DNA of 64,000 nucleotides from Anaerolineae bacterium (GCA_038198935.1 JBBPZQ010000003.1:8271-72270); one strand, 5' to 3'. Numbered from the stretch's first letter, positions 1 through 37,921 are shown. Numbers and translations are program-made. Notes: a model not told the origin generated them from the letters alone.

Positions 1-718
1 TAGGAGCGTTTGCGCCGCCCGTACTTTGGGAAACTTTGTGCATCACACGCGCTTGCGGCACAAGCAATAACTGATAGCCCTGTCGCCGCGCGCGCAGACA
101 GAAATCCAAATCCTCGTAGTAGAAAAAGAAATGCTCATCGAACAATCCGACACGCTCGAACACATCGCGGCGAATCAACAGCGCGCAGCCGCTCACAAAG
201 TCGCGCGCGACGGGTGCGCTCGGCAGCAGGTGATTGCGTCCGTGATCGTCCGTCATCTCCAAGAGCAAAGGACTAACGTGGCCGCCGACAGACCAGATGC
301 ACTCCGATGCGTCGGCATAAAAAATCGCGGGCGCGACAATAGGCGCGTCGTCACTTGTGTAGTGAAGCAATTCGCGGACCGCACATGCATCGGCGCATGC
401 ATCGTTGTTGATGATGAACACATAATCTGCATCGTGCGCGAGCGCGTAGCGAATGCCGGTATTGTAGCCACCCGCGAAGCCGAGGTTGTTTTCAAGTCGA
501 AGTAATTCGAGGTCAGGAAAAGCCGCACGGATGGTTGCCACCGAATCATCCGTCGAGCCGTTGTCCACGACGAGCACTCGGATGTTCGCATCGCGCTGTG
601 CTACCAGCGAGCGCACACACTCAATCGTGTCGTCGGCGCGATTCCAGTTGACGGTCACGCCATAGACAAGCGGCGCGAGCACACGCGCTGTTTCTTGCGC
701 CGCGTCATGCAAAAGCAT
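1..718 (-). CDS. GT2 family glycosyltransferase (partial, runs off left edge)
   Basis: Not in the ORF track. Manual translation from ATG 718: MLLHDAAQ..VTVNWN..VVDNGSTD..NLGFAGGYNTG..INND..SGCALLIRR..GLFDEHFFFYYEDLDFCLR. Confidence 0.9.
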   Translation of the reverse strand, partial: MLLHDAAQETARVLAPLVYGVTVNWNRADDTIECVRSLVAQRDANIRVLVVDNGSTDDSVATIRAAFPDLELLRLENNLGFAGGYNTGIRYALAHDADYVFIINNDACADACAVRELLHYTSDDAPIVAPAIFYADASECIWSVGGHVSPLLLEMTDDHGRNHLLPSAPVARDFVSGCALLIRRDVFERVGLFDEHFFFYYEDLDFCLRARRQGYQLLLVPQARVMHKVSQSTGGANAP

Positions 719-1829
719 GCTCTGCACTTGCCGCCTTCTCTATCGCTCTCACCAGCGACGACCACTGCACGTTGTCGGGCAGCGCTCTGCGCTCGCACGG
801 CAGCCGTGCGGCACATCCGAGCGCATCGGCAAGTGCGCGCGGATCGCGCGGCGGCACGATGTATATGCTTGGCGTGTCGCACGGCAAGCCCGCACTGTCG
901 AATGCCGTCGTCGTCAGCACGATGGGCAAGCCAAAGCCGAGCGCCAACTTCAGCGCGCCGCTCTGCGTACCCGCAACATAGGGCGCGGCGAAAACGTCAG
1001 CCGCCGAAAAGAACAGCGACACTTGCTCATTTGGAATGTAATAGCTCTCGATGCGCACACAATCGCCAATGCCGAGTTGCGCAATCTGTTGAAGGTAACG
1101 CGCCTTGTCATCCCAGAATTCGCCGGCAATCACAAGTTGGACAGGCGCGTTGTGTTTCAATTGCGCGACGGCGTCGAGCAAATCACGCAACCCTTTGTAT
1201 GCACGCACGATGCCAAAGAACAACACAATCGGAATATCGGGCGGCAGGTGCAATTGTTCGCGCGCACAATTTCGGTCAATATGACCGGCATTGAACGAAT
1301 CAAAGACGGGCATCGCACACACGGCGACATCGGCATGCGGCACCATCGTTTGCAAACGTGCGCGCTCACGCTCGGCTTGCGTGATGAACACACTGCCCGA
1401 GCGCAACGCCCAGCGCGCGAGCGAACGATCTACGCGGCGCGGCTCGTGCGGCAAGACGTTGTGGATAAGATACAATACTCGTCGGCCATTTTGTCGCAAT
1501 CGCCGTGCGAGCATGGCGAATGCTGGCGCCCAAAACGTCGTCCACCACTGCATCACCACGATGTCCGGCGCAAACTGCTCGATGCGCTCGGCTGTGCGCC
1601 ACCAACTGCGCACGTCGAAGGGATCGAGCAGATACTCGGCGGTGACGCGCAGCGGCTGCACGCTGGGGTCGCGGTCACTGCGGCCAGGATACAGCCAGCG
1701 CGGATACTGACGGCGGAACGAAATCGTCTGCACTTGATGCGTTTGCGCCAACGCCTGCGCGAGCAGCGTCGTGTGGTGTGCGATGCCGCCGCGATACGGA
1801 TACACGGGCCCGACGAGCGCGATCTTCAT
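705..1829 (-). CDS. GT4 family glycosyltransferase
   Basis: GPVYPYRGGIAH N-terminus, FFGIVRAYKG, PY..GTQSG motifs; overlaps both neighbours. Confidence 0.9.
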   Translation of the reverse strand: MKIALVGPVYPYRGGIAHHTTLLAQALAQTHQVQTISFRRQYPRWLYPGRSDRDPSVQPLRVTAEYLLDPFDVRSWWRTAERIEQFAPDIVVMQWWTTFWAPAFAMLARRLRQNGRRVLYLIHNVLPHEPRRVDRSLARWALRSGSVFITQAERERARLQTMVPHADVAVCAMPVFDSFNAGHIDRNCAREQLHLPPDIPIVLFFGIVRAYKGLRDLLDAVAQLKHNAPVQLVIAGEFWDDKARYLQQIAQLGIGDCVRIESYYIPNEQVSLFFSAADVFAAPYVAGTQSGALKLALGFGLPIVLTTTAFDSAGLPCDTPSIYIVPPRDPRALADALGCAARLPCERRALPDNVQWSSLVRAIEKAASAEHAFA

Positions 1830-2761
1830 CGCGGCAACTCGTGCTCGCCGCGCGTACTTTCACGCGTATACTCTTTCCATTTGCGGATCGGGAAGCCGCG
1901 CTTCACGATCAGGTCAGCCAACAAGCCAATCGCGAAAAACTGCAAACCCATCATCAAGATCACCACGGTCGAGCTTGGGACATAAAATAAGTTGTTGTAG
2001 AAGATGATGTCGCGAATGTATTTCAAGACGCCGAGCGCGAGCAGGAACAGCGCCATGGGCAGAAACACTTTGAGCGGATTGAAATACATGATCACGCGCA
2101 CGACGAGCATCAAGTATGCATAAGTGTCCGCGATGGGGTGGAACGACGAGCGGCCCTTGCGCGCATAGTACTCGATCGGCACGTATTTGACCGTCTGCCC
2201 GCTTGACAAGTACGCCATCGTAATCGTGCTTACCCACGAGTGTCCAAACGGCAGAATCGGGAAAAAGTCCTTGACCTGTTCGCGGTAGAACGCGCGCATT
2301 CCAGAATTGAGATCGGGAATGTTCACGCCCGTCATATAACTCGCCAGGCGACGAATAAACTCTTTGGCGGGCACGCGCAGCCATTTGAGCGTCCCTTGCT
2401 CTGAAGTGCGCGCGCCGACGACCATCTCGTAGTCGTCGAGATATTGGAGCAAGCGCGGGATCTCGTGATTGGGATAGGTGCCGTCGCCGTCGGTCATCAC
2501 AACCACGTCGCCTTGCGCGGCGCGGACGCCGGTCATCAATGCCGCGCCCGTGCCGCGATTGTACGGATGCTTCAGCAAGCGCACGTCGGGCAGCGCGGCG
2601 ACGATCTGACGCGAACCGTCCGTCGAGCCGTCATCCACGACGATGATCTCGAACGGGCAGCCGTGCTGCGTCATCGTCTGCTGAATGATTTGCAAGTCGG
2701 CGGCGATGGCCGCTTCTTCGTTATACATCGGGACGACGACGCTAATATGCAGAGTGGACAT
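1826..2761 (-). CDS. GT2 polyprenol-phosphate glycosyltransferase (DPM synthase/GtrB-like) with two C-terminal TM helices
   Basis: VVVPMYNEE, VVDDGSTD, DGDGTY, DLNSGMRAF; hydrophobic C-terminus. Confidence 0.88.
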   Translation of the reverse strand: MSTLHISVVVPMYNEEAAIAADLQIIQQTMTQHGCPFEIIVVDDGSTDGSRQIVAALPDVRLLKHPYNRGTGAALMTGVRAAQGDVVVMTDGDGTYPNHEIPRLLQYLDDYEMVVGARTSEQGTLKWLRVPAKEFIRRLASYMTGVNIPDLNSGMRAFYREQVKDFFPILPFGHSWVSTITMAYLSSGQTVKYVPIEYYARKGRSSFHPIADTYAYLMLVVRVIMYFNPLKVFLPMALFLLALGVLKYIRDIIFYNNLFYVPSSTVVILMMGLQFFAIGLLADLIVKRGFPIRKWKEYTRESTRGEHELPR

Positions 2762-2764
2762 GAG

Positions 2765-5224
2765 TTATGGCGAGGACTGGCCTTGCAGTTCAATCGTCTG
2801 GTATGCGCTGCTGATGCGCAGGCGGAATGTGCGCTGCGCTGCATTGGATGCGATCTGCACCTGCGCGTCCGCCCACTCGTCCGTCAGAAACACGCTGACC
2901 AGTTGCAAGCGACCCGCGCTTGGCGCGTAGTATACAATGGTTTGAGCGTTTCCATAAACGGATGGCGCAGCGCGCACGCTCGTCGTGTTCCATGCGTCGT
3001 GCGGCAGCACGAACCGCGCGGGATGCGCGCCGCGCCGCAGCCACAGTACATCGCCGTCGCGCTCACCGTCGCCGACCACATGCCAACTCAGTGCCGCGCG
3101 CCCTTCCCCACCGTCGGCAGAATCCACAATCACGATCGGTCCTTGCGGATATAGATACATTGTGCGTGTCTGGGTCCAGCCATGCCACTGTTCGATGACA
3201 CTCTGCGCGATTTGCGGCGTATCGTTGGGATCGAATTTCGTGACGCGCGCGTAGTGCGGCGGGTCTTGCGCCCATCCGCTGCCGATGCCGAGTAGCGCGA
3301 ACACGCCGCCCAACCCTGATGTGGGAATCAGCAAGCCGTTCAAATTCTCGCGCGGCACGCGCTTGTCGCGCAGTGCCGCGCGACCCTTCGGCAGCCACGT
3401 GATGCGCTCAGGCGCGACTTGCTCGACGACAAGCGGGCCCGCGCGCATGAGCGTGATGATGTCGTTGGTCGCTTTGTAGCGATGCCAGCCCGTGAAGCGC
3501 AAATTGAGCAGCGCGTAATTCGCATCGTCCGTCCAGCCATCGCGCAGCACAATTTTGTCGGGCGCGAGCGGCCCGCGCTGCGTCGGCAGACCGGAGTCAG
3601 CATAGACGAGACACGATCCCGTCGTCGGCGCAACTCCCTGCAAGTTGAGCGCGGACTCAACGCCGGGCTGCGCAAATAGCAACGCATCACGCTCGCTCAT
3701 GCGCGCAAGCGATTGCGACGCGAGCCATACATAGCGTGGGTCGTGCAGCAACTGCGCGCCGAGATAAAATGCGTTCGCGGACCAACCGTCTTGATCGGAG
3801 TTGAACGGCAGCGGACTGCCGTCGGGCGGCGTGAGCATCAGCAGCCACTCGAACGACGCGCGCTGATTCTGCAACGACACCGACTGCGGCGCGAGCTGCG
3901 CTTGGAACAGCGCGTTGTTCAGCCAATGCGTCTGATAGAAATACGAATCGTCCGTGTTGTGAAAACGCGCCGCCCAACCGCGCGGATCGTTTTGCAAGTA
4001 GGCGCGATTACGCTCCGACAAATTTGGATCAGCCAACTGATTCGCTTCGAGCACGGCGAGCAGCCCCGCGCCATTCTCCTGATTCTCGTACGGGCCTAAC
4101 GGCCATTCGCGGAAGGCGATGCCGTACAGCGCATCCACCCATTCGGGCGTGAGCGCGCGGCGGTTGATCGCGGCGAACCACTGCGCGAGCGATTGCTGCT
4201 CGCTCGCGCTGAACAAGTCGGGATATTGCGCGCGCATCTTTGCAAAATAATAGACGCGCAGTGCCGCCTCAAACTGGCCCCATTTCACGCTGCCCATTGG
4301 CTGCGTGAACGCTTGCTGCTGCGCTTCCAACAGTAGCGCGCGGCGGAAATCTTGTGCGTCGTTCGCATCCCGTTTGGCTAATGCAATGAACGCGAACTCG
4401 GCGGGCGTCTTGAATGGATTCGTTTCAATGCGCCGCAGCAATTGATCGTACACGTCCACGCCGGACACCGTGCTGGACGATGGTGTGACTTGACCGCATA
4501 GGCTCGTTTGCGTCGGCGTAATGCCCGCAAACGACGGCGGATCGTTGCCGTAGAAACTCGACTGATACGAGCTAATCGTCTCGACGACAGCAACGCTGAG
4601 TAGTCCTAACGCGAGCGCAAGCGAGATGACAACGGATCGGCGCTTTAGTTTGATGGTACTGTGTGCGCGAGACGGAATGACGAATTGAACCGCGCTCAAC
4701 ATCAGAAAGCAAAAGCCCGACAGCGCGAGCGCCTGCACGAACGCAAAGAACTCTTCGTCTGCAAACTGACTCGCGATCTGCGCGACGACGACGGGCACAC
4801 TGCCGCCGAGCAGCGCGATGCCGACGCGCGCGAACCAGCGCGCACTGCGCCGCACGCGCATCAGCGCAACCAACGTGTCGAGCGTGATGAGCCACATCAG
4901 CCACGCGCCGACCGCGAGCCACGCGACGAGCGTGCTGCTCTGCCACGCACACGCCAGCCACGCACCCAACATCATCGCGCTGCCGAACGCAAGCCACAAA
5001 CGGGTGTGATGCAATGTGAATCGCTGCGCGACAATTGCTGCCACACTCACGAGGACGACGACGACCACACGCGCGAGTACGTTTATCAATTCGTTCGGCG
5101 CGTCCGCGAGCATCGCCATCAGCAGCAGCCACGCGAGCGGCACGAGCAGCGCGAGCAGGCGCAGCGCACGCGAGACAGAGATGGCGCCGACCATTTGCGC
5201 GCGATTAACGACAGTCAGATTCAT
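2765..5224 (-). CDS. Membrane-anchored protein with extracytoplasmic heparinase II/III / alginate-lyase-like region
   Basis: About 220 aa multi-TM N-terminus, then helical region (YENQEN, DDSYFYQ, PDGSPLPFNSD) and KIVLRDGW..GWHRYK segment like the heparinase II/III C-terminal domain. Confidence 0.55.
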   Translation of the reverse strand: MNLTVVNRAQMVGAISVSRALRLLALLVPLAWLLLMAMLADAPNELINVLARVVVVVLVSVAAIVAQRFTLHHTRLWLAFGSAMMLGAWLACAWQSSTLVAWLAVGAWLMWLITLDTLVALMRVRRSARWFARVGIALLGGSVPVVVAQIASQFADEEFFAFVQALALSGFCFLMLSAVQFVIPSRAHSTIKLKRRSVVISLALALGLLSVAVVETISSYQSSFYGNDPPSFAGITPTQTSLCGQVTPSSSTVSGVDVYDQLLRRIETNPFKTPAEFAFIALAKRDANDAQDFRRALLLEAQQQAFTQPMGSVKWGQFEAALRVYYFAKMRAQYPDLFSASEQQSLAQWFAAINRRALTPEWVDALYGIAFREWPLGPYENQENGAGLLAVLEANQLADPNLSERNRAYLQNDPRGWAARFHNTDDSYFYQTHWLNNALFQAQLAPQSVSLQNQRASFEWLLMLTPPDGSPLPFNSDQDGWSANAFYLGAQLLHDPRYVWLASQSLARMSERDALLFAQPGVESALNLQGVAPTTGSCLVYADSGLPTQRGPLAPDKIVLRDGWTDDANYALLNLRFTGWHRYKATNDIITLMRAGPLVVEQVAPERITWLPKGRAALRDKRVPRENLNGLLIPTSGLGGVFALLGIGSGWAQDPPHYARVTKFDPNDTPQIAQSVIEQWHGWTQTRTMYLYPQGPIVIVDSADGGEGRAALSWHVVGDGERDGDVLWLRRGAHPARFVLPHDAWNTTSVRAAPSVYGNAQTIVYYAPSAGRLQLVSVFLTDEWADAQVQIASNAAQRTFRLRISSAYQTIELQGQSSP

Positions 5225-7664
5225 TCAGCGCGAACACTCCCACTTTGTCTTGACGATAGATCGTCGTGAACGCCAACGAGTTTTCCAGATCGGCGAGATG
5301 CAGCATCGGCTGCGGCGGTGGAATGCCAATACGCCCTTGCTCCTCGCCAACGTAAACATGCGTGATGTGATTGTTGCACAGCAGCGCAACGCCCTCGCGT
5401 GTGCTTACCCCAACTTTCCGTAACTGCGTTACGAGTTCGACGATCCAATCGTTGAAGCGCACATCATTGGGCCGCTCGGAGAGCAGCGCATACTGCGGCG
5501 GCATGGTGTTGCGGCGATGCGCGATCATCGGCAGCCACCAGCCGCCGTCAGAGCCGACGGCCGAAGTGCCACCATAGATCAGAAATCCATCCACGAGAAA
5601 TTGCGCGTCGCGCGACACGTTTGCGTCAATCCACTGCATGGCACGCAGGTCGGCGGGCGCGAGGATGCGATTGTCTGGCTTGACCGCACTGAGCTGTTGT
5701 CGCGCGCCGAATAAGGCGAGCAGACTAAACACCGTCAGCGCGCTGACGAGCCACACACGGTTCAACTGTGTCGCAGCATCCAACAGCCGATCAACGCCGT
5801 AACCGACTGATACGCTAATCGGCATGTAAAGACTGATGATGATGGCAAAGCCTTGCAGGTTGTTCGCGCCCGGCACGCGCAGCAGACGCGAGGCAGGTAA
5901 CAGCGCAATGCCGATGCACCACAGCGCGACGATCAGCACCGCGCGATGGCGACGCCACAGCGCGTAAAGGGTTACGAGCGTCGCGGCGAGCACGAGTGCA
6001 AGCGGCACGTACTGGTCGAGCGAGGTGAAGATTTGATATTCATTGCGCACCGCGTCGAGCGTCGAGCCTTGGGTCACGCCGAACTCGACCGACTCGGCGA
6101 GATTGCCGCCGCGAATATGCAGGAGCCATGGCAGCATCAGCGCGAGCGCAACCAAACCAGCGCCGCTCAGCATAAGCAAGGGTTCAATCAGCGCACGCCA
6201 ATGCGAACGCGCACGAAGCGCATACGCGCCGACGAGAAGGATGACGAGCAGCGCGACGTAATGCGGCATCCGATAGTAAGCCAGCAGCGTGCCCGCAAAC
6301 ACGAGTGCTGCGACCACGCTGAGTCCGATACGCTTGTGTGCGACGCCGTCAAACATGCGCCACGTCAGCCAGCACGCGGCCGGCACAAGCGCCTGTCCGA
6401 GCAGTTGCGGATAGCGGCCCCAATTCAAGTACTCGTTCGGCAGCGGCGACAGCAAGCCCGCGACCAGCATCGCGCCGACGCCCGCCCACCGATTACGGCT
6501 CACTCGTTCGGCGAGCAACGACAGGGAGAGAATCGCGACGAAATTGATCCACTGGCCCACGAGCAGCGTCGCGTCGAGGATCGCAGCGCGCGTCAGCCAT
6601 GCGAAAGCGGCGACCGCGCTGTGAAAACCGTAATGCACCGTGAGCGTGCTATACGGCGCATACGGCTGCCACGAATCGAACAAGCCACCATGATCGAGCA
6701 GCAGCTGCGCGATGACCGTGTGCTGCACCGAGTCGCCGAGCATCGGCGCGTCCACGCCGCGCAAGATGAACAGCTGCACGCTCAGCACGAGCGTCGCCGT
6801 GATCCACCACGCCAAACTAGCCACGTCACTTCGAATGCGCACGCGCATCCACACGTCGCGCTGCGTGAACGCGCGCAATGTGAGCGCGCATGACGCGACA
6901 ACAACGGGCAGCACGACGGTCCAGGCACCCAGCGCGATGTCGGCCACGCGCGCCCAGAGCAGCACGAGCGGATACACGCACAGACTCAATGCCGCAGCGA
7001 GCGCGATGCGCGCGCGCCACGCCGTGAGCGGCAGCAGAAATGTTTGCAGCGCCATGCCTGGCACAACGAACACGACGACGAAAGCGAGCGTCGTCAACAC
7101 GGACTGTCCGACGAACGACAGCAGATCGAGCGCGACCCACTCGGCGGCGTAGCTCGCTCGGAACGACAACTGCCCGTCTTGCGCGCGCTGCGCGACGTAT
7201 AGCGCGCCATCCCGATATGCGCTGCTCGGCAACTGCGCGCCGTGCAGCATCGCGCCGACTGGCAACCGCGACTCGACGAAAAAGTAATACGATTGGTTGC
7301 GCGCATCTATGGGATCGAATGCGAAATGATACCAGGTCTGCGGCGCAGGCGAGCGCATCATGAGCGATGCCACACGCAAGTCGGGCGCGCTGGGCAGTGC
7401 GGATGAGCGCAGATGCAGCGTGAGTGGCGCGTCCCCGGCAGCGCCATCTGTTGCCAGCAATATGTCAATGCTCTGCAAGCCCGCGTGCCGCGCGACGAAC
7501 GATTGACCAATCGTGCTATCCGCAGATACACTGACATTCGTTGCGGCATCAGGCGCGAGCGTATCGGAGATGTGCGCGTCGCAACCGACCAACATCAGCG
7601 TCAGCAGCGCGCACAGACACAGATGCCGTTTAATCGTCCACCACCCGATAGACCCACACGTCAT
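5205..7664 (-). CDS. Polytopic membrane protein, GT-C-like (DUF6541-like), with N-terminal lipobox-like signal and soluble domain
   Basis: LMLVGC lipobox-like; GDSVQH, YGFH, WGRYPQ motifs; many TM segments; start uncertain. Confidence 0.7.
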   Translation of the reverse strand: MTCGSIGWWTIKRHLCLCALLTLMLVGCDAHISDTLAPDAATNVSVSADSTIGQSFVARHAGLQSIDILLATDGAAGDAPLTLHLRSSALPSAPDLRVASLMMRSPAPQTWYHFAFDPIDARNQSYYFFVESRLPVGAMLHGAQLPSSAYRDGALYVAQRAQDGQLSFRASYAAEWVALDLLSFVGQSVLTTLAFVVVFVVPGMALQTFLLPLTAWRARIALAAALSLCVYPLVLLWARVADIALGAWTVVLPVVVASCALTLRAFTQRDVWMRVRIRSDVASLAWWITATLVLSVQLFILRGVDAPMLGDSVQHTVIAQLLLDHGGLFDSWQPYAPYSTLTVHYGFHSAVAAFAWLTRAAILDATLLVGQWINFVAILSLSLLAERVSRNRWAGVGAMLVAGLLSPLPNEYLNWGRYPQLLGQALVPAACWLTWRMFDGVAHKRIGLSVVAALVFAGTLLAYYRMPHYVALLVILLVGAYALRARSHWRALIEPLLMLSGAGLVALALMLPWLLHIRGGNLAESVEFGVTQGSTLDAVRNEYQIFTSLDQYVPLALVLAATLVTLYALWRRHRAVLIVALWCIGIALLPASRLLRVPGANNLQGFAIIISLYMPISVSVGYGVDRLLDAATQLNRVWLVSALTVFSLLALFGARQQLSAVKPDNRILAPADLRAMQWIDANVSRDAQFLVDGFLIYGGTSAVGSDGGWWLPMIAHRRNTMPPQYALLSERPNDVRFNDWIVELVTQLRKVGVSTREGVALLCNNHITHVYVGEEQGRIGIPPPQPMLHLADLENSLAFTTIYRQDKVGVFALNESDCR

Positions 7665-9477: not shown

Positions 9478-10488
9478 TCATGCGCGATGCGTGTATGTCG
9501 AACGTTGCAGATGCGCGTAGCGGCTGGCCACGGCGCGTGGCGCGGCGATGCGCTGCATGCGCGACAGCAACTCGTCTGCGCTCACGCGGCGCAGCGACTG
9601 CACCTGCTTGCGCTTGCGCCACATGCGCGCGCTGCCGCGTAATGCTGCGATGCGTCCTTGCAGTGCGCTGACATCACGGCGCAGCACGAGCGCATAGCAC
9701 ACCGCAGCCCAATCATACGCGACGATGAGCGGAAGGTAGAGCCACAGATACGGTGCGGGATAATTTTTGATGATCGTCCACCATTTGTTGCGTCCGAGCA
9801 GTTGGCTCTTGAACGGCGAGCCTTCGATGCTCGTCGCCGAATGCCAGTGGCTTACACGCGCCTGCGGCACGTACAGCGCGCGCCAGCCCGCCAACTGCGC
9901 GCGCCACGCGAGGTCAACGTCTTCGAGGTACGCGAAGAAGTCTTCGTCGAACGGGCCAATCTCGTCGAACAGGGAGCGCCGATAGAGCGCCGCGCCTGCA
10001 CACGCGCCGAACACATCACGTACCTCGCGCTCACTCGCATCGTCCAGTTCGCCGCCGCAGCGGTCCCACGCGATGCCAGCCCGATCCACGCAAATACCCG
10101 CCGAGTTAATCACGCCGCGCGGCTCGACGAACAGCATTTTGCTGGCTGCCATGCCCGCGTGCGGCTCGCGTTCCAATGCGAGCACCAACTGCGACAGCCA
10201 CTCAGGGTCGGGCACGGCATCATTGTTGAGCGTTGCAATGAGCGGCGCGTCGCTCGCGCGTATGCCGGCGTTGATCGCCGCTGCGAAACCGCGATTGGTT
10301 GTAAAGCGGATGACGCGCACGGCAGGAAAACTTGTGCCGATGAACGCAACACTGCCGTCTTGAGAACCATTATCCACAACGACGATCTGCAGATCGTCGT
10401 AAGTCTGCACGTGCAGCGCACGCAGACACGCGTCGAGCATGCGCACGCCATTGTAGTTCGGAATGATTACCATAACGGGTGTGTTCAT
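9478..10488 (-). CDS. GT2 family glycosyltransferase
   Basis: IPNYNG, VVDNGSQD, LNND, EDVDLAWR; ATG 10488 overlaps upstream stop (ATGA). Confidence 0.9.
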   Translation of the reverse strand: MNTPVMVIIPNYNGVRMLDACLRALHVQTYDDLQIVVVDNGSQDGSVAFIGTSFPAVRVIRFTTNRGFAAAINAGIRASDAPLIATLNNDAVPDPEWLSQLVLALEREPHAGMAASKMLFVEPRGVINSAGICVDRAGIAWDRCGGELDDASEREVRDVFGACAGAALYRRSLFDEIGPFDEDFFAYLEDVDLAWRAQLAGWRALYVPQARVSHWHSATSIEGSPFKSQLLGRNKWWTIIKNYPAPYLWLYLPLIVAYDWAAVCYALVLRRDVSALQGRIAALRGSARMWRKRKQVQSLRRVSADELLSRMQRIAAPRAVASRYAHLQRSTYTHRA

Positions 10489-11720: not shown

Positions 11721-11739
11721 TGCGGCGACGATGCGCGGC

Positions 11740-29940: not shown

Positions 29941-30557
29941 TACGCTCCCTTGCCGCTCAACACTGCGCCGAAGGTCAGCCACAAAATTTTCGTATCGAGC
30001 CACAGCGATTGATGATCCACATAATATAAATCGTATTCGAGATGTTCGTACATCGGCTGCAAGCGGCCGTTGACCTGCCACCAACCCGTCAAACCCGGCT
30101 GCGCATCGAAGCGGCGATGCATTTCGGCGGGATAGCGTTCCAATAGAAACAATTGCTCTGGGCGCGGACCCACCAGACTCATCTCGCCGCGCAGAATGTT
30201 GACGAGTTGCGGCAACTCGTCGAGGCTGGTGCGGCGCAGCCAGCGGCCCACACGCGTGAGGCGCTCGTCGTCGCTGGACGCTGGCTTGATGGCATCGCTC
30301 GATTGATCTATGTACATCGTTCGGAACTTGTAAAAGTTGAAGACTTGCTTGCGGTGGCCCAGTCTTGGCTGACGGAAGACTGCCGCGCCTCGGGAGTCCC
30401 ATTTGATCAGTATGCTAATCAACCCCATCAGCGGCGCGCACAGCACGAGTGCGACGGCGGCGACGACTACATCGAGCGCACGCTTGCACGTGAAGTACGC
30501 GCGGCGCTCCGCGCTCAGGTGGTGCGCTGCGAACAGTGATTGGCTGTGATCCATCAA
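29937..30557 (-). CDS. Priming sugar-phosphate transferase (bacterial sugar transferase domain)
   Basis: [40 protein letters not shown]. Confidence 0.92.
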
Positions 30558-30578: not shown

Positions 30579-31583
30579 TCATTCGACGGAAGCCGACGCC
30601 TGCCCCGCGCCACGCTGAAGCATCGGCACGACGCGCAGGATCGTGAGCACGCCAAGCAGCGAACCGCAGCCAATCGCCAAGCCGCGCAGCGCGACAAACG
30701 CAAACACGAGCGGCGTGAGCGCGCGGTCTGTACGCCACGCGATGCGCGACAGCGGCAGTGCAGACAGCATACATCCAATGGCGAGCAGCAGCACGAGCCA
30801 GCGCACTTCGCTCAGAAACCACGCGAGCGGCAGCAGCGCGATCAGCAGCGGCACGAGCGCGCTCTGAAATTTGAGCGACTGCGGCGTGTAACTATCGGCG
30901 AGCATTTTGTAAGGATAACGCGAATAGACTTGCATCCGCCAGTAGCCGCGCCAGAACTTCTGGCGCAAATAGTTGCGCATGATAGAGGGATGGCGATGAT
31001 AGACCACGGCGCGCCGATTGAACGCCATGCGAAAGCCACGCGCCGCGAGACGATAAGATAGGTCAACGTCCTCGTTGTTCAATACGAGCGCATCGTAGCC
31101 GCCCACCTCAAGCAGTACGGACTTGCGCAGCGCAAGCGAGTGTGTGTCCACAAAATCAATCACGCCGCTATGCGCTAGCCGTTCGTATCGCTCTTCAAAT
31201 TCCAACTGCGCCAAGCGCGCCGTCCATTCGCGCTGCTGCGTCGCGTACGCACCCTTCACACCGGCTACCGTCCTGTCGCACAGCGATAACTGCATCTGCT
31301 CGATCCAGTCGACCGCGGGTTGGCAGTCGGCATCGGTGAAGAGCATCACCTCCCCGCGCGCTGCGCTCACACCGAGATTGCGTGCGGCGGACGGCCCGCG
31401 ATGCGCTTGACGGACGACGCGCGCGCCCAAGGCGCTTGCCACCTGCGCGCTGTCGTCGCTCGAGCCATCGTCAACGACAATGACTTCGTATTCCGTCGCG
31501 GGTATCGTCTGTGCGCGCAGAGCGGCGAGCAAGGCTGGCAATGTCGCCGCAGCGTTCAAGGCGGGCACGACGACCGAAAACAT
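30579..31583 (-). CDS. GT2 glycosyltransferase with C-terminal TMs
   Basis: VVVPALN, VDDGSSD, FTDADC, EDVDL. Confidence 0.88.
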   Translation of the reverse strand: MFSVVVPALNAAATLPALLAALRAQTIPATEYEVIVVDDGSSDDSAQVASALGARVVRQAHRGPSAARNLGVSAARGEVMLFTDADCQPAVDWIEQMQLSLCDRTVAGVKGAYATQQREWTARLAQLEFEERYERLAHSGVIDFVDTHSLALRKSVLLEVGGYDALVLNNEDVDLSYRLAARGFRMAFNRRAVVYHRHPSIMRNYLRQKFWRGYWRMQVYSRYPYKMLADSYTPQSLKFQSALVPLLIALLPLAWFLSEVRWLVLLLAIGCMLSALPLSRIAWRTDRALTPLVFAFVALRGLAIGCGSLLGVLTILRVVPMLQRGAGQASASVE

Positions 31584-32596
31584 CAGGCACGCTCAACCGA
31601 TTTGGCGGGTGCGCGTCGCAGGCTCATCAATTCCTGAAAGACGAAAGGACCCGCAACCACGACCTGCGGCACGGTCACGACCAAATACAAGATCACGCCG
31701 TAACTGAATGCGAGTTGTTGATTGACGCCGAACAGCGTCAGCGTTAGCCGCGCGAGCGCCGGCACCACGCCGACTTTGCCCGGCGTGGTGGGCACCGCGA
31801 CGCCGATCTGCAACACGATCAGCAGCACCGTCGCGACCAGCCACGACGGCGGCATCGCGAGCGCGAAGAACAGCAGCCAGTTCGTCGCAATCATCATCGC
31901 CCAGATGACGAATGACCACAGTGCAATCGGCAGGACTGTGCGCTGACGCAGCGGTGCGAACCCGCCGAGCGTGAGATCGAATTGATTTTCGATGCGCGGC
32001 GACTCCACGCGAAACACTTTTGCGCCGAGCCACGTCCAGAGGCGGCGCAGCCGAGACTGCTGCATGAATATCGCGGACAGCAGCAAGACCGCGCCGAGAA
32101 CGAGTGCGCTCAAGCGCAGCGACGGATCGCGCAGCCACGCGGGGAACGGCACGAACGGGGCGACGAGCAGTGTTAGCACAAATAGCGCGACCAGCTCGAT
32201 CAGCTTCTCTGCGCCAATGGTTCCGAGTATCCGCGCTGCCGCTTCGCCTTCGCGCCGACGCAACACGTACAGGCGTGCGACTTCGCCCAAGCGCGCGGGC
32301 AGGAAAAAATTGACCGCCGCGCCGATGGTCAGCGCGGCAAACAGCGAAAGAAAACTGAGTCGAGGCTGGAAAAAAAGTTGCCAGCGTGCAGACTTAGCTG
32401 CGAGCGTGAGCACGAACAGCAGTGCCGCGAGCGCAACGGGCCGCCAATCCGCCTGCTGCACGATACGCCATACGTCATCCAGCGACACACCCCAGAACGC
32501 GAGCGGCACGAAGATAAGACTGGCAAGCAATGACCAGAGCAAATGACGAAGCGAGAATGTGGGCGGCGTGAGCGGCGTGTTCATGCGTGGACGCAT
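31583..32596 (-). CDS. Lysylphosphatidylglycerol-synthase-TM / AglD-type flippase-like membrane protein
   Basis: NFFLPARLGEVAR, VPTTPGKVG; multi-TM. Confidence 0.8.
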   Translation of the reverse strand: MRPRMNTPLTPPTFSLRHLLWSLLASLIFVPLAFWGVSLDDVWRIVQQADWRPVALAALLFVLTLAAKSARWQLFFQPRLSFLSLFAALTIGAAVNFFLPARLGEVARLYVLRRREGEAAARILGTIGAEKLIELVALFVLTLLVAPFVPFPAWLRDPSLRLSALVLGAVLLLSAIFMQQSRLRRLWTWLGAKVFRVESPRIENQFDLTLGGFAPLRQRTVLPIALWSFVIWAMMIATNWLLFFALAMPPSWLVATVLLIVLQIGVAVPTTPGKVGVVPALARLTLTLFGVNQQLAFSYGVILYLVVTVPQVVVAGPFVFQELMSLRRAPAKSVERA

Positions 32597-32663: not shown

Positions 32664-33347
32664 TCAGCGCTTCGGCGTCGGCGTGGGTAGCGGCAGCGGA
32701 ATGATGAGCCGCTGTCCCGTGCGCAGCGTGCGCGGATCGGTGATCCCATTCGCCGCCATCAGCGCCTGCGCCGTAATGCCGAACTTGGCTGCAATCGAAC
32801 CCGGATTATCACCCGCCTGCACGATGTAAATGATCGGCGTCGCCGTCGCGGACGCGCCTGGCGTGTCTGTCGCCGCCGGCGGCGTGCCAGTCGGCGGCAA
32901 TGGCGTGCCGGTAGCTGGCGCAGGCGTCGTCGTGTTCGTGCGCGTCGGCGTGCGCGTCGGCGTCGCGGTCGGCGCGGGCGTTATCGCCAGCGCGATATTC
33001 TGCGGCAAGCCGCTCAAGGCGATCAGCAAACCGCACAGGAAAACGAAGCCGAGCGCGGCAACCAGAAACCACATCGGATTTGGCCGCCGCGTCTGCACCG
33101 GCGCGGACGCAGCTTCCAATCGCTCCCCTGCGACTTGCGTCGCCGCCGTGCGCGCTTGATGCCCAAGATAGAAACGACAGGACCGATGATTGCCGCTCAG
33201 GCAATATTGTTCTTGCTCGTCCAGCGTCAGCGGCGAGACGCGCTGGTTGGCGTAGCAGCGATTCTCCAGTGTAGGGTAGGCAAAGTGCGTGTCGGGGTTG
33301 GCGCGCGTGCCGAGCAACGGGCAAACTTGATCACGTTCGATTTTCAT
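32664..33347 (-). CDS. LysM protein with Cys-rich N-terminus, TM helix and Pro/Thr linker
   Basis: CPLLG..NRC..YCL..CRFY; TPTRTPT linker; YIVQAGDN..IAAKFG..L..AN..GQRLIIP. Confidence 0.85.
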   Translation of the reverse strand: MKIERDQVCPLLGTRANPDTHFAYPTLENRCYANQRVSPLTLDEQEQYCLSGNHRSCRFYLGHQARTAATQVAGERLEAASAPVQTRRPNPMWFLVAALGFVFLCGLLIALSGLPQNIALAITPAPTATPTRTPTRTNTTTPAPATGTPLPPTGTPPAATDTPGASATATPIIYIVQAGDNPGSIAAKFGITAQALMAANGITDPRTLRTGQRLIIPLPLPTPTPKR

Positions 33348-33416: not shown

Positions 33417-33950
33417 CTACTCAATCAATGCTCGCCTAACCAATACATCCATAATCTTCGCCGCACTTTCATCCGCGCTCTCGCGGTCAGAGTGGATGGT
33501 CACATCGGGTGCGAGCGGCGGCTCGTAGGGATCGCTAATGCCCGTGAAGTTTTGAATCTCGCCCGCGAGCGCCTTCTGGTATAAGCCCTTCACATCGCGC
33601 GCGGCGAGCACATCAATCGGACACTCGACGTACACTTCGACGAAGTTGCTGTTGTGCATCGCGCGCACTTCATCGCGCACCTCGCGATACGGCGAGATGG
33701 CGGCGGCGATTGCAACTACGTCATTGCGCGCGAGCAGTTGGCAGACCCAACCGATGCGACGGACGTTGGTGTCGCGGTCTTCCTTGCTGAAACCCAGTCC
33801 CTTGCTCAGATGCGTGCGTACAACATCTCCGTCGAGAATCTCGACTTTACATCCGTGTGTCCGAAGTTCCTCTGCAATTGCCTGCGAGAGTGTGGACTTG
33901 CCTGCGCCGGACAATCCCGTGAACCAAATGGTAAAGCCTTTATGGCACAT
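33417..33950 (-). CDS. cysC: Adenylyl-sulfate (APS) kinase
   Basis: [38 protein letters not shown]. Confidence 0.95.
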
Positions 33951-34032: not shown

Positions 34033-36651
34033 TTATCGTTCCCGCAAATCCTTCCCGATCATATCGCTCGGCACATCCACGCCCATCGCGTTCAGGATGG
34101 TCGGCGCAACGTCGTAGATGCGTGCGCCGCTCGCCTTGCGGCTGCCCTTGCCCTGCGGCTCCTTGACAATGAACATGCCGAACTGCGCGTGGTTGGCATC
34201 GTCGGGTCCACCATCATTCTCGAAGGTATGGACGCTATTATAACCGAGTGTTCCAATTGCACGCCAATAGAGGTCACCGAAGTACACGATCAAATCGGGC
34301 GGAAAATTGCGCACATGACGATAGACGCCTTGCGGTTTGTATGCCGTCGTGCCGATGTTGCGCCCTTTGTCGTCTGCGATGCTCGCCAGCCGAGCGGCAA
34401 TCTCGTCGCGCACCACTTCGTACTGCGACGGCGGAATAATCCCCTGTGGCTCGCGGCCCTGCACGTTCATGAACAGCCGTCCATAGTAGCCGCCCGCACC
34501 CCACGCCTTCGTCTTGCTCCAATCCACTTCAACTTTCTCGAAGGGTGTAATGCCGTGCGGCTCATCCTTCAGCACGAGATAACCTTCTTGGCGCAGCCAC
34601 TCGTTGAACACGATACCGCCGTCCATGCGCTTCGCGCCGTGATCGGAGACGACGAGCACGGTCGTGTCCTCGTCCACCGCTTTGAGCAGTTCGCCGATTT
34701 GCTCGTCCACGAAGCGATAATAATCACGGATCGCGGCGATGAACTTGTTGCCCGGCACGTGCTTCGGGTGCTGCGGGTCCATATACTTCCAGAAGGCATG
34801 ATGGATACGATCCACGCCGATCTCCATCAGCATGAAGAAGTCCCACGGTTTGGTGCGTATCCAGTGGTTCGCCAGCTTGAAGCGCTTCTCCGTCATCTGG
34901 TAAATCTGGCCCAGCAGCCAATCTTTATTCTCGGTGCGGAAGCCCGCCACATCCACCATGTACTCGCCGACGAGCGACTCGACCTCGCCACGCAGGTCGT
35001 TTGGGTAGGTGTATTGTGATTTCGTTGACGGTGTGAGGAAGCACGAGACGGCGATACCGTTCAGTGGCTTGAGCGGATATGATGGCGGCACGCCAATCAC
35101 GATGCACTGCTTGCCTAGCCGCGAGAGAATGTCCCAGACTGTGTCCTCGTGCACTTGCCGCGAGTTCACGATCATCTGCCGTTCGTACGAGTAATCGGGC
35201 CGGTTGTGGAATCCGTAGAACCCGAGTTGGCCGGGGTCCTTCGAGGTCATCATCGTCATCCACGCGGGCACGGTGATCGCGGGCATGCACGATTCGAGTT
35301 CGCCCCACGTTCCACCATTCATCAGCGAGGACAGATTCGGCAACTCGCTTCGCCACTTGTCGAAGACCAGCGAAGGCTCGGCGCAGTCGAGTCCAATGAC
35401 GAGCACGCGCCGCTTAGCGGAAGGATTAGGGATGAAGGATGAAGGATGAAGTTTTGTATCATCCTTCATCCTTCTGACTTCAGCCTTTGCTTTTAGTCCC
35501 TGCATCAACACGCGCGAGACTTCGGGCCGCGTGAACTCGGGCGGCAGCATCTCGCCGCGCTCGAGCATCTGGCGCACTTGCGTGCCGCTGATGATCAGAC
35601 GGTCGTCGTCGCTGTGCGGGCACGTTTTGGACGAGACGATGGCTCCGCACTTGCGGCAGTAGAAGGTGTGCTCGAAGAATAGCGGCGTGATGCCCAGTTC
35701 GTCTTTGCTGAACTCGTCGAAAATTTTCTGCGCGTCGTAGCTGCCGTAATACTTGCCGACGCCTGCGTGGTCGCGCCCGACGATGAAGTGCGTGCAGCCG
35801 TAGTTCTTGCGGCACAGCGCGTGGAAGATGGCCTCACGCGGGCCCGCGTAGCGCATCGCGGCGGGAAACACGCCGAGCAGCACGCGCTCCGGCGGGTAAT
35901 AGTCGCGCAGCAGCGCCTGATACGACATCATGCGCACGTCGGCGGGAATGTCATCGCTTTTCGTCTCGCCGACAAGCGGATGCAGGAACAAGCCGTCGCA
36001 GATTTCGAGCGCGGTCTTTTGAATATATTCGTGGGAACGGTGGATCGGGTTGCGTGTCTGGAAGCCGACCACACGCCGCCAGCCGCGCTGGGCGAACATG
36101 CGACGTGTCTGTGCAGGCTCGTGGCGGAACTCGGCAAATTCTTGATTGGTACGCCGCTCGATCAGCCACACCTCGCCCGCGAGCAGCACATCGCCTTGCG
36201 CCATCAAACGCGCGACGCCGGGGTGCTTTATGTCCGTCGTGCGGAAGACGTTATGCGCTTCAGCCGTCTTGTCATAGGTGAACTTCTCGCCGATGGTCAT
36301 TACGCCGAGCGTGACGCCATCACTCGCCACCAACGCGACCTCTTGCCCGACCCGCAGCGAATCGGCGAGCGACTGCTCGACGGGCAGTGTGATCGGCATC
36401 GTCCACGGCAGTCCATTTGCCAAGCGCATCTCGTGCACGACGCGCTCGTAGTCACGTTTGCCCATGAAGCCCGTGAGCGGACTAAGCGCGCCGACTGCGA
36501 TCATTTCCAAGTCGGATTCGGCGACGACGGTGAGCGGAATCTTTGCGAGCCGCTCGGCACGTGCGCGTGCGGCAGCGCGCTCGTCGCCGCGCAGTACGCT
36601 ATCCACCAACACGCCGCCATGCGGCACTGCCACTGAATTCAAACCAATCAC
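34033..36651 (-). CDS. sat: Sulfate adenylyltransferase fused to alkaline-phosphatase-superfamily (nucleotide pyrophosphatase/phosphodiesterase-like) domain
   Basis: [17 protein letters not shown] (Sat); [26 protein letters not shown] (AlkP fold); start GTG 36651 or TTG 36660. Confidence 0.9.
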
Positions 36652-36775
36652 GAACCACAACTCCGTTCAACCAAAGTTGCTCGCCCTCGAACCGCGAGGA
36701 CACGGAATTATAACCCCAAGACACACGAGCGCGAAAACGAGGGTTGCATAGAGACATTGCATGAATCGCCACTTC

Positions 36776-37921
36776 CTACCCCGCCCAATAGCCCTGCACA
36801 AACAGCAACGTGTACAGCGCGAGCAGCAATGCCGCGCTCAGGGTGTACGCACGATCAAACCATTCGTGCTCGCCGAAGCGCGCGAGGAAGAGCGGCACGG
36901 TAAACGCCGCGAGCGCGTAGCGGTCGAGACTGCTCGTCTGAATCGTGGAGAGCGGTAGCAAGACGCACAGCGCGCCATAGACGGCATAACTCAGTCGCCA
37001 GCGCAGCGCGATGATGGCGGACACGAGCAACACGAACGCCGTCAGCCCGACATCCAACGCGAAGTTCACTTGCGCCGCGCTGTATTGCTGTAGATGATCC
37101 CAGTCCAACTGCTGCGCCCACGCCTCGACTTTCAATGGCTCGCGATTCCACAGCGCGCGCTGCGTCTCGAAGAACGACAAGCCTTGCGCGTTGAGCGTGA
37201 ACTCGAATGCGATGAACGCGAGCGGCAAGAGCAGCAGCCATGCCCACTGCCAACTGCGTTTGCGCGTCTGCCACCACTGCACGCCGAACTCGACGAGTAA
37301 CGCGGCGAACAGCGCGTAGCCCGACGCGCGCGCGAGCATCGCCAGCGCACCTGCAATGCCCGCGAGGGGCCAACGCTGCGTGCGCGCGCAATACAAACTC
37401 AACGCGGCGAGCAAGATGAACAGCGATTCGGTGTAGATGTTGGTCAGGAAGAATGCCGATGGAAAGATGAGGAAATAAAACACGCCGCGTATTGATTGTG
37501 CTTCGTCGGCGTCGAGTCGCAGCAGCCGATACAGGGCGAGCGCCGCGCCGAGCGCGCTCAGATTGCTGACGAGGAATGCCGCTGCCGGAAAATCACAAGC
37601 AGGCGGCTCCAAACCGAGCGGCGAGCACCACAGGCTGACGACGAGTTTGATCGCGATTGGATACAGCGGCGGGAACGCAGCGTTGTCGTGTACATAACCT
37701 TCGCCTGCAATCCACGTGTAGAAGCCGGAGTCGAAACGCGAGTGCAAGTCCACGAAGCCGCGCCATGGCTCGGGCACCATCGTCGTGATCTGGCTCGTCC
37801 ACAAATACGCTTGATCGGGTTCGGTCAACCGAAAACGAAAGAACCCGATGAGCGCGAACGATTGCAGCGCGATCCACCAGAGAACGAAAAGCAGCAGCAC
37901 GCGCGCGAGTGAGCGAGACAT
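36776..37921 (-). CDS. GT-C mannosyltransferase-like protein (PIG-V-like)
   Basis: RFDSGFY..IA..GY, AFPPLYP, FP...F...YTESLF. Confidence 0.78.
   Translation of the reverse strand: MSRSLARVLLLFVLWWIALQSFALIGFFRFRLTEPDQAYLWTSQITTMVPEPWRGFVDLHSRFDSGFYTWIAGEGYVHDNAAFPPLYPIAIKLVVSLWCSPLGLEPPACDFPAAAFLVSNLSALGAALALYRLLRLDADEAQSIRGVFYFLIFPSAFFLTNIYTESLFILLAALSLYCARTQRWPLAGIAGALAMLARASGYALFAALLVEFGVQWWQTRKRSWQWAWLLLLPLAFIAFEFTLNAQGLSFFETQRALWNREPLKVEAWAQQLDWDHLQQYSAAQVNFALDVGLTAFVLLVSAIIALRWRLSYAVYGALCVLLPLSTIQTSSLDRYALAAFTVPLFLARFGEHEWFDRAYTLSAALLLALYTLLFVQGYWAG

Follow-up and report, generated by a model that had tools for sequence, protein, structure and literature searches.

The window analysed here comprises 64,000 nucleotides of the genome of an Anaerolineae bacterium (contig C3; genome completeness 97.9%). 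Over its first 38 kb the genes lie nearly all on the same strand, and many overlap. An earlier note had named within it seven GT-C-type genes, a DPM-synthase-like GT2, a flippase-like protein, a priming transferase, a Wzt and sat/cysC, and all of these genes exist. At the left end, on the minus strand, are a GT4 gene (705..1829), a GT2 with two C-terminal helices that resembles polyprenol-phosphate sugar synthases (1826..2761; AglJ/PgfS/DPM-synthase-like), and a gene missed previously (2765..5224) whose 8-TM product has a heparinase II/III-like (polysaccharide lyase-like) outer domain. In a language-model comparison the clusters nearest to the 2765 protein were PF07940 (cosine 0.95-0.96), and a Pfam search with it returned no match. 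The GT4 gene moves as a mini-block with 2765 and the GT-C-like gene at 5205, and contig C43 of genome G205 holds the GT4-Hep-5205 orthologs. Also on the minus strand are genes for accessory cytoplasmic glycosyltransferases in the order GT2, GT4, unknown protein, GT2-GT4 and GT2 (9478..16034), for a secreted beta-rich protein with an fn3-like domain and a C-terminal LPL-type motif (16165..18321), and for a Wzt with a Wzt_C domain (19762), then a GT4 (together 18378..20976). The membrane partner Wzm/ABC2 (PF01061) gave no match on contig C3 and 10 genome-wide, and no wzm adjoins wzt. A membrane-anchored LysM protein with a Pro/Thr linker is encoded at 32664..33347 on the minus strand, a position retained in family f1 only.

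The seven putative GT-C enzymes are diverse. The minus-strand gene at 5205..7664 encodes a DUF6541 protein with a C35 paralog 73% identical in DNA, and its language-model neighbours are the DUF6541, PTPS_related, PMT_2 and STT3 clusters. The DUF6311 protein encoded at 7630..9390 (minus strand) has homologs that include YfhO, PTPS_related and PMT_2, and its first-loop Asp46 is invariant among 65 aligned homologs. Its predicted model (pLDDT 94.8) resembles STT3, AglB, AftD, DPY19 and ArnT (Z up to 24, rmsd ~5, ~460 residues aligned); the GT-C fold was modelled for 7630 alone, the other six being assigned by Pfam, homologs or language-model neighbours. The gene at 21138..22502, on the plus strand, has a weak PMT_2 match and PMT_2-positive paralogs, and adjoins the core described below in genome G201 only. 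The remainder, all on the minus strand, encode a TMEM260-like protein (26933..28537; PF11028), a PMT_2 protein (28534..29931; PF13231), a PIG-V-like protein (36776..37921; PF04188) whose G203 ortholog sits on a different contig, and, outside the island, an ArnT/PMT_2-like protein (50005..51480) with homologs that carry PF13231 or ArnT-like names. The original ORF call of 28534 was too long and overlapped the priming transferase gene; its true start is near 29931. All seven proteins are polytopic, with 8-13 helices predicted by a simple hydropathy count, all seven have an acidic motif that closely follows the first GT-C-module helix, and each has either the fold or clan homology. The earlier GT-C assignments are supported.

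GT-C density is not special to this window. The genome contains 57 PMT_2 matches. Its GT-C-like ORFs number at least 76, and contig C116, whose battery includes a synthase and a flippase, accounts for 12 of these; larger batteries exist elsewhere in the genome, and an expansion that runs through the genome and the phylum takes in most of its GT-C genes. Nor are Pro/Thr-rich exported proteins enriched around GT-C genes: 7/136 of them lie within 5 kb of one, compared with 126/1330 other hydrophobic proteins. The proposal of a co-encoded Pro/Thr-rich substrate finds support for one sub-block, in which a protein with a QTVPT motif accompanies the TMEM260-like GT-C.

This sub-block belongs to a conserved core that spans 22.6-32.6 kb. 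Besides the TMEM260-like gene, the core encodes, all on the minus strand, a secreted clan GH-A-like protein with an Ig-like tail (22583..24139), which retains an invariant Asn-Glu acid/base pair and a second Glu, the QTVPT protein (24199..24903), a DUF4012 protein (24918..26936), a priming phosphoglycosyl transferase (29937..30554; PF02397, E 7e-64) that in relatives is often fused to the next GT2, that GT2 with its C-terminal helices (30579..31583), and a flippase-like protein of the LPG_synthase_TM / TIGR00374 type (31583..32596). The PMT_2 gene at 28534 is found within the core here and in G214 only. We surveyed 40 Anaerolineae DUF4012 neighbourhoods from 39 genomes, several of which stop at contig ends, using profiles built from other loci. 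The TMEM260-like GT-C was present in 22/40 loci (19 within 400 bp), the GH-A protein in 21, the QTVPT protein in 20 (16 with the strict motif), the flippase in 19 and the GT2 in 17. At least three of these five partners were present in 20/40 loci and none in 6/40. The TMEM260-like gene and the QTVPT protein co-occurred in 15 loci and were both missing from 13; seven had the transferase and no detected QTVPT protein, and five the reverse. The same profiles applied to 80 control loci found no TMEM260-like or GH gene, one flippase, one GT2 and one spurious motif match. The six genes, DUF4012 included, recur together in 17 Anaerolineae families; in G202, of the same family as this genome, flippase-GT2-PGT is retained without DUF4012. 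Outside the core, sat/alkP/cysC and GT-C 21138 occur in 0/40 and Wzt in 1/40 of the other DUF4012 loci, although all three are near DUF4012 here. In none of the 40 loci was a polyprenol-phosphate sugar synthase detected within ~9 kb of DUF4012; the synthase-like GT2 at 1826 is 22 kb from the core, outside the reach of that survey.

What might the core GT-C do? A family profile for 26933 hits the human protein O-mannosyltransferase TMEM260 (9rql) with E 2.8e-66 over 447 columns that cover the whole membrane part, and the invariant Asp37 of the bacterial family aligns onto the catalytic Asp52 of the human enzyme, whose D52A replacement abolishes activity (PMC10214176). On the basis of its GT-C module and Asp52 equivalent, 26933 is a predicted TMEM260 homolog. 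The bacterial proteins are shorter, at ~500-530 aa (534 aa for 26933), and because the match does not extend past human residue 492, most of the long C-terminal TPR-containing domain (residues 411-707) is missing. They differ also in context, since their genes keep company with those of DUF4012, a flippase, a GT2 and a priming transferase, and in the proposed acceptor, which would be a mucin-like stalk, whereas human TMEM260 is described as acting on folded IPT domains (PMC10214176). The available text of that study mentions just 'distant homologs in bacteria' (PMC10214176). In our survey TMEM260-like genes are widespread, being present in 132/151 genomes, with six copies in this one. In a quick tree, a single branch (SH-aLRT 92) separates 30 DUF4012-linked proteins, from 17 families, from five unlinked ones.

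The candidate acceptor, the QTVPT protein, has a signal peptide, a Thr/Ser/Pro stalk (39 Thr, 29 Ser and 31 Pro in 234 residues) and a C-terminal membrane helix with a basic tail. The motif stands at the mature N-terminus and, among the Pro/Thr-rich ORFs of the genome, is found in this single-copy protein only, barring one ORF that resembles a wrong frame. Its gene directly follows that of DUF4012, and an acceptor candidate lies within 400 bp of DUF4012 in 10/40 loci. A canonical LPxTG sortase signal is absent from 24199, several orthologs end in a sortase-type LPxxG, and the genome encodes three sortases. Thr glycosylation has a possible precedent in the phylum, in a Chloroflexota archaellin whose cryo-EM densities at two Thr residues are interpreted by the authors as O-glycans (PMC12488501).

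The adjacent DUF4012 protein has a single N-terminal membrane anchor and conserved outer-domain arginines (Arg372 invariant, Arg230 and Arg286 nearly so), as LCP ligases require, and may be an LCP-like ligase of a lipid-linked glycan. Its sequence is not recognisably LCP: 0/52 DUF4012 members match PF03816, and searches of the PDB gave no match to solved LCP proteins. Profile-profile comparison with LCP is weak (probability 3-5%, E 0.007-0.013, against E 0.2-0.8 for controls); when a low threshold is set for the alignment, the RK pair of DUF4012 coincides with the R..RQ motif of LCP. An O-antigen-ligase domain is fused to DUF4012 in 2/150 representatives, and six ordinary LCP genes are also present in this genome.

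Next to the core is a sulfate module, sat-alkP-cysC. CysC (33417..33950, minus strand) is the sole APS kinase found in the genome. Its only Sat (34033..36660, minus strand; start codon somewhere within 36627-36660) is fused in frame to an NPP-fold domain (34033-35415), a fusion that had escaped the earlier note. This domain belongs to the AlkP/NPP superfamily by its fold, two-metal ligands and Thr nucleophile (Asp10, Thr48, Asp202, His206, Asp258, His259, His409) and best matches ENPP1/NPP (E ~1e-18). Formylglycine sulfatases carry a C/S-x-P-x-R motif; the domain was rejected as one of them, its nucleophile loop being Thr-Val-Pro-Ala-Trp and its PF00884 score under the cut-off. CysH and sulfite reductase were not found in the genome, and no canonical sulfotransferase was detected with PF00685, PF13469 or a profile of 28 Chloroflexota sulfotransferases, the families covered by the search. 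For these reasons PAPS is probably made for sulfation, as had been suggested, but nothing in the data links the sulfate to the candidate glycoprotein.

We view the 38-kb stretch as a patchwork, a reading to which we give about an even chance: the core likely O-glycosylates one dedicated membrane-anchored Thr/Pro-rich surface protein, the remaining GT-C genes play accessory parts, and sat-alkP-cysC stands apart as a module of its own, likely supplying sulfate for a cell-surface glycan. Gene content, folds, catalytic residues and co-conservation are observed, and from these we infer the donor, the acceptor and each of the following steps. The priming transferase and GT2 would assemble a short glycan on polyprenol pyrophosphate, which the flippase-like protein would transfer outward. 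The QTVPT protein would be exported and retained by its C-terminal helix, or, in some orthologs, by the LPxxG end. The TMEM260-like GT-C, via Asp37, would add a sugar to Thr/Ser of this protein, with the QTVPT end as its probable recognition site. Attachment or elongation of the lipid-linked glycan would fall to DUF4012, and its trimming or remodelling to the GH-A protein. This is reminiscent of LcpA-GspA-SrtA in Actinomyces oris, where the gene of an extracytoplasmic enzyme that is anchored in the membrane and has conserved arginines adjoins that of a small exported surface protein (PMC6381275). GspA is reported to receive a first modification from an unknown enzyme before LcpA acts (PMC6381275), and that is the slot a TMEM260-like enzyme would fill here. 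Unlike that system, the Anaerolineae one has a DUF4012 protein in place of a recognisable LCP, a surface protein that ends in a membrane helix rather than a canonical LPxTG, and glycan-building genes in the same block.

Alternatively, the product of the core could be a secondary wall polysaccharide, built and exported by the priming transferase, GT2 and flippase, decorated with side sugars by the TMEM260-like GT-C and fixed to peptidoglycan by DUF4012, the QTVPT protein being a co-regulated scaffold or spacer. Wall polymers, which monoderm GT-C enzymes often decorate, are an established setting for the combination of GT-A glycosyltransferase, flippase and GT-C (PMC8035078), DUF4012 is encoded beside a priming transferase in a B. 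longum EPS/CPS cluster (PMC5412050), the GH-A protein, together with the transferase, is the commonest DUF4012 partner, as polysaccharide systems predict, and half of the loci have no detected QTVPT protein. We nevertheless consider it fairly unlikely: among characterised enzymes the core GT-C is closest to a protein O-mannosyltransferase, many families keep beside it a single-copy mucin-like protein whose N-terminal motif is conserved, no Wzy or Wzz is present in the core of this window, and Wzt is rare at DUF4012 loci. The locus does resemble the multi-component transmembrane glycosylation systems CsbB-GtcA-YfhO and GtlA-GtcA-GtlB in having those three components (PMC8035078), and 7630 has YfhO-family homologs; compared with the systems as described there, its flippase is of the LPG_synthase_TM type instead of GtrA or Wzx, GT-C genes number dozens per genome, and the conserved GT-C is TMEM260-like and accompanied by a candidate protein acceptor. 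Still less probable, and indeed very unlikely, is the earlier note's reading of the whole 38 kb as a single pathway that brings all GT-C enzymes, the DPM-synthase-like GT2 and PAPS to bear on co-encoded secreted proteins to give sulfated glycoproteins. The shared strand and overlaps would suit it, sat-alkP-cysC lies directly beside the flippase block in G202 and G203 of family f1, the G203 DPM-synthase ortholog is ~36 kb off on the same contig, and the genome showed no other use for PAPS. G203 has different intervening genes, however, the sulfate genes of G201 are on another contig, and both their absence from the 40 surveyed loci and the genome-wide GT-C and Pro/Thr counts given above speak against an integrated system.

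The sulfate module poses its own question, that of the Sat-fused domain. It could be a non-canonical sulfotransferase, a candidacy only slightly short of even, with a small chance that it is something else altogether. It is also quite possible, if somewhat below even, that it is an accessory hydrolase that clears either PAP or pyrophosphate, in the latter case drawing the Sat reaction forward, sulfate transfer being left to longer AlkP paralogs or glycan-cluster sulfatase-like proteins. Hydrolysis is favoured by the nearness of its fold to ENPP1/NPP hydrolases, by the joining to Sat of every fusion with an identified partner (8/10 long forms), by a genome with a membrane H+-PPase only and no family I pyrophosphatase, and by two longer AlkP paralogs here, one adjoining a GT-C gene; a glycosyltransferase is near only 6/80 metagenome loci, many of them short, and canonical sulfotransferases occur at 4/120 AlkP loci. 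Yet the domain, which co-occurs with CysC in 34/34 genomes, avoids assimilatory operons, whose need for pyrophosphate removal is equal (CysH in 0/17 Sat+AlkP loci versus 38/60 Sat-only loci), and does not complement soluble pyrophosphatase, present in 13/24 ortholog genomes versus 33/81 other CysC genomes. In family f2, 13/14 genomes have CysC and canonical sulfotransferases without this domain or a family I PPase, and in G109 and G165 it lies apart from sat, its neighbours being GT2 genes and a gene for a membrane protein that is Wzx-like or has 13 TMs. The archaeal AlkP-core proteins Agl30/Agl31 of Halobacterium salinarum are required for glycan sulfation and likewise combine this superfamily fold and a glycosylation context with the lack of a canonical sulfotransferase domain (PMC11980604). 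As described there, and compared by description rather than sequence, they are sulfatase-like and not reported to be tied to Sat or CysC, the terms 'PAPS' and 'phosphosulfate' being absent from the text, whereas the Sat-fused domain here is NPP-like and its nucleophile is a Thr.

Taken to its furthest extent, the patchwork reading could be viewed as a vertically inherited two-step machine of the Anaerolineae, in which TMEM260-type priming of the QTVPT end or Thr stalk would be followed by DUF4012 glycan ligation to give a bottle-brush glycoprotein layer, with the adjacent Sat-fused NPP-fold domain in family f1 sulfating the glycan as a non-canonical sulfotransferase. As a whole this is speculative and rather doubtful. 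If it is true, the bottle-brush layer would be part of the unexplained multilayered envelope of the Chloroflexota.

What holds the surface-glycan island of this Anaerolineae genome together? The source genome is 5.27 Mb and 97.9% complete, and the Sat of the window has its best relatives among Anaerolineae (Chloroflexota) records. From window position 1 to 37921 nearly all genes lie on the minus strand and are themed on surface glycans, with unrelated metabolic genes beyond 38 kb. The earlier note proposed that these 38 kb form one integrated system that glycosylates surface proteins and perhaps sulfates them, a reading we now consider very improbable: synteny across relatives and 40 DUF4012 loci led us to reject a single co-conserved 38-kb system and supports a smaller core at 22.6-32.6 kb. 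The core comprises genes starting at 22583 (GH), 24199 (the Pro/Thr-rich QTVPT protein), 24918 (DUF4012), 26933 (TMEM260-like GT-C), 29937 (priming transferase), 30579 (GT2) and 31583 (flippase-like). Promoter and terminator scans of 19-38.5 kb performed no better than chance, and a tRNA search of the DNA under study found none. Just outside the window start (source contig C3, 125-8249) the island goes on with genes whose translations read as a GT4, three methyltransferase-like proteins, a NodU/CmcH-like carbamoyltransferase and a second flippase-like protein.

The core came to light when 20 relatives were searched at the DNA level and 30 fetched regions were annotated (L232, identical to L001, was counted once). 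Synteny anchored on Sat and its AlkP domain gave the misleading impression that no GT-C gene is co-conserved; anchoring on closer relatives and on DUF4012 exposed the core. Five relatives (G201, G203, G205, G211 and G214) keep together the flippase, GT2, TMEM260-like GT-C, DUF4012, a small Pro/Thr protein and a GH-like protein, with the GH gene itself absent from the fetched G214 region; G204 and G217 carry parts only, and the GT2 is often fused to the priming transferase in relatives. The small Pro/Thr proteins are orthologs that share a signal peptide, a QTVPT motif where the mature chain begins, a stalk of Thr/Pro and, at the C-terminal end, a helix that carries a basic tail.

DUF4012 genes are carried by 75/151 Anaerolineae genomes, and 40 of its 82 listed places, in 39 genomes, were picked for long contigs and family spread. 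Within about 9 kb on each side, several clipped by contig ends, and with profiles built from the window and earlier loci only, a TMEM260-like GT-C was found in 22/40 loci (19 of them at 400 bp or less), GH in 21, the flippase in 19 and GT2 in 17. The QTVPT protein was found in 20/40 with a pattern widened by variants from the same set, and in 16/40 with the strict motif. At least three of the five partners occurred in 20 loci and none in six; neither the transferase nor the QTVPT protein occurred in 13. The 80 control loci held no TMEM260-like gene, no GH, one flippase and one GT2 (both in L001), and one spurious motif. A BLAST search located the priming transferase in 9/40 loci and Wzt in 1/40, while Sat, AlkP, CysC, the LysM protein (32664), 21138 and 28534 were found in none, with a filter that can miss a gene outscored by a paralog. 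Genes 1826, 5205, 7630 and 36776 are out of the 9-kb reach even in the window, so that the evidence for them comes from the fetched regions of relatives: in G203 the 36776 ortholog is on another contig and that of 1826 about 36 kb off among different genes, and 5205 is co-located with the heparinase-like gene in G205 and G215. In a quick tree with few outgroups, a branch (SH-aLRT 92) separated the 30 linked TMEM260-like proteins (17 families) from 5 unlinked ones; locus counts and tree alike include kin and are not independent.

The components of the core suggest what it may do. When the profile of the 26933 family was searched against the PDB, TMEM260 alone was matched (9rql, E 2.8e-66, columns 17-463 on residues 30-492), and the invariant Asp37 of the family lines up with TMEM260 Asp52. 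TMEM260 transfers O-mannose to proteins and loses its activity in the D52A variant, and 'distant homologs in bacteria' are mentioned (PMC10214176). TMEM260-like genes occur in 132/151 genomes of the class, with six in the source genome, where the QTVPT protein is single-copy. In the core GH family an Asn-Glu pair is invariant and a second Glu is kept as well, and its weak PDB matches are to what we take, from the PDB names, to be GH51- and GH128-type enzymes. The DUF4012 protein has a single helix, at the N-terminus, and conserved arginines; its family counts 13,383 representatives at 50% identity. A relationship to LCP is suspected from its motifs; DUF4012 matched neither PF03816 nor any PDB entry, and profile-profile comparison with LCP gave a probability of 3-5% and E 0.007-0.013 (controls, E 0.2-0.8). 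Among 150 representatives no TMEM260-DUF4012 fusion was found, and two (P0344 and P0409) carry DUF4012 behind an O-antigen ligase (Wzy_C) domain in one chain.

The simplest reading of the core, to which we give an even chance, is a dedicated O-glycosylation pathway for the QTVPT protein, all of whose enzymatic steps we infer. The priming transferase and GT2 would build a lipid-linked glycan, the flippase-like protein would export it, the TMEM260-like enzyme would modify Thr/Ser on the QTVPT protein, DUF4012 would attach or extend the glycan, and the GH would edit it. This would resemble Actinomyces GspA, which acquires an unknown modification before LcpA acts (PMC6381275). Thr-linked densities on a Chloroflexota archaellin (PMC12488501) suggest that Chloroflexota O-glycosylate proteins. 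The main rival, that the core decorates a polysaccharide and attaches it to the wall, parallels multi-component systems of Gram-positive bacteria (PMC8035078), and an EPS cluster of Bifidobacterium lists DUF4012 among its genes (PMC5412050, PMC6744442); we regard this rival as unlikely, though less so than the all-in-one system.

Are the GT-C genes around the core a distinguishing feature? The earlier note was right that seven membrane proteins are GT-C-like, as judged from Pfam, homologs, the fold of 7630 and feature neighbors, and each has an acidic motif behind the first helix of the module. Pfam matches are to PMT_2 (28534), TMEM260-like (26933), PIG-V (36776) and DUF6541 (5205); 21138 matches PMT_2 weakly and has paralogs that are positive for it, homologs of 50005 are labelled ArnT/PMT_2, and 7630 is a DUF6311 protein. 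The 7630 profile found no real match in the PDB; its model (pLDDT 94.8) has a fold that matches STT3, AglB, AftD, DPY19 and ArnT (against STT3, Z 24.3 (VIA), rmsd 5.1, 457 aligned), and the feature neighbors of 5205 include PMT_2, PTPS_related and STT3 clusters. The proposed identities of the DPM-synthase-like GT2, flippase, Wzt, CysC and Sat also stand, as does the priming transferase (29937-30554); no Wzm-type gene was found on the window's contig. A mini-block of GT4, heparinase-like 8-TM protein and DUF6541 GT-C (window 705-7664) is repeated in G205 (L253 230-6390) and partly in G215 (L255 13496-19200), where the heparinase-like match is broken into pieces.

The GT-C battery of the window is nevertheless not special. 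The source genome has 57 PMT_2 matches and 76 GT-C-like ORFs by BLAST extension from 58 seeds (12 on C116, 7 on C89 and 6 in the window's island), and PMT_2 was matched in 118/121 genomes of the phylum sample, many with at least 27 scored candidates. On C116 (10281-42833), twelve nearly contiguous GT-C-like genes are accompanied by a DPM-synthase-like GT2 and a flippase, which makes for a cleaner battery than that of the window. The idea that Pro/Thr-rich substrates are encoded beside GT-C genes survives for the one QTVPT protein kept in the core, but not as a general proximity: a GT-C gene is no more than 5 kb away for 7/136 Pro/Thr-rich proteins that have a hydrophobic segment, against 126/1330 other hydrophobic proteins (p 0.12), and no more than 10 kb away for 17/136 against 199/1330. 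On their own, therefore, neither a high density of GT-C genes nor a Pro/Thr protein close by counts as evidence. Elsewhere in the window, in a lower-GC stretch (0.54-0.56) at 53421-55603, two acyl-CoA dehydrogenase genes flank an insertion that encodes a secreted protein of the M23 peptidase family and a lipoprotein rich in Pro/Thr. A C-terminal motif, [FYHL]LP[LIV][IVLM]-basic, ends 32 of 4204 picked genes (about 3.7 expected), mostly of secreted proteins; it is found at the C-termini of 16165-18321 and 22583-24139 and near the N-terminus of 53421-54758, and may serve in Chloroflexota as a signal for surface sorting or assembly.

The sulfate module consists of CysC (33417) and the genome's only Sat (34033-36660), which is fused to an NPP-fold (AlkP) domain that retains its metal ligands and a Thr nucleophile and lacks the sulfatase motif. 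The module adjoins the flippase block in G202 and G203 but does not do so in G201 or at any of the 40 other loci, so that its target need not be the QTVPT protein. Because sat and alkP are separate genes in G202 and G203, and the linkers of nine other fused proteins differ in length and sequence, the fusion likely arose more than once. Within the linker of the window (35400-35480) is a short inverted repeat; across the genome one of its halves recurs 16 times and the other 8 times, mainly away from gene interiors. Longer AlkP paralogs lie at C9 9464-11137, with an acidic C-terminal tail and adjoining a GT-C gene, and at C102 1-1503.

What consumes the PAPS? Searches of the source genome turned up no CysH, sulfite reductase or canonical sulfotransferase, and its lone PAPS_reduct match was rejected as a reductase since it resembles a TtuA/TtcA-type tRNA thiolase. 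The AlkP domain occurs at E 1e-40 or better in 34/201 phylum genomes, all 34 with CysC (105/201 overall); CysC is likewise present in 46/49 genomes with a canonical sulfotransferase. Sat or CysC lies within 1.5 kb of the domain in 13/23 other close-ortholog genomes, PF01507 is missing from 15/24 close-ortholog genomes (8 of these also without Sulfotransfer_3), and motif-seeded BLAST found CysH in 0/17 Sat+AlkP loci, against 38/60 Sat-only loci, and in 0/80 metagenome AlkP loci. In Halobacterium, AlkP-core proteins are needed for glycan sulfation (PMC11980604). That the Sat-fused domain is itself a sulfotransferase falls just short of an even chance in our view, but the NPP fold is a hydrolase fold, the fusion partners identified are Sat, family I pyrophosphatase is missing from the source genome, glycosyltransferases are nearby in only 6/17 Sat+AlkP loci and 6/80 metagenome loci, a canonical sulfotransferase occurs in 4/120 AlkP loci, and 17 CysC genomes, many in family f26, have no CysH, Sulfotransfer_3 or AlkP match at the thresholds used. 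An accessory hydrolase is a somewhat more tentative proposal; phmmer found nothing in the PDB for the domain, and its profile gave weak PhnA/NPP matches only. Soluble pyrophosphatase is present in 13/24 AlkP-ortholog genomes and 33/81 other CysC genomes; the AlkP domain does not complement it. Directly after sat-alkP, CysC is fused to, or followed by, a sulfatase-family domain in L123 (10689-12542) and L047 (4070-5383), a candidate for another non-canonical sulfotransferase.

Each part taken singly has a known analogue; in literature mostly outside subscription journals, we found neither a conserved pairing of a TMEM260 homolog with DUF4012 and a motif-bearing mucin-like protein nor anything on Chloroflexota GT-C glycosyltransferases. 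Chloroflexota have layered envelopes without outer-membrane genes, with layers proposed to consist of polysaccharide or protein (PMC13319060). Since the core points to an enzyme, to one candidate acceptor bearing a conserved motif, and to a catalytic residue, the nature of these layers becomes directly testable. The Sat-fused NPP-fold domain could explain PAPS use in genomes without a reductase or canonical sulfotransferase, and the core would give a role to DUF4012 and a first function and substrate to a bacterial relative of the disease gene TMEM260.
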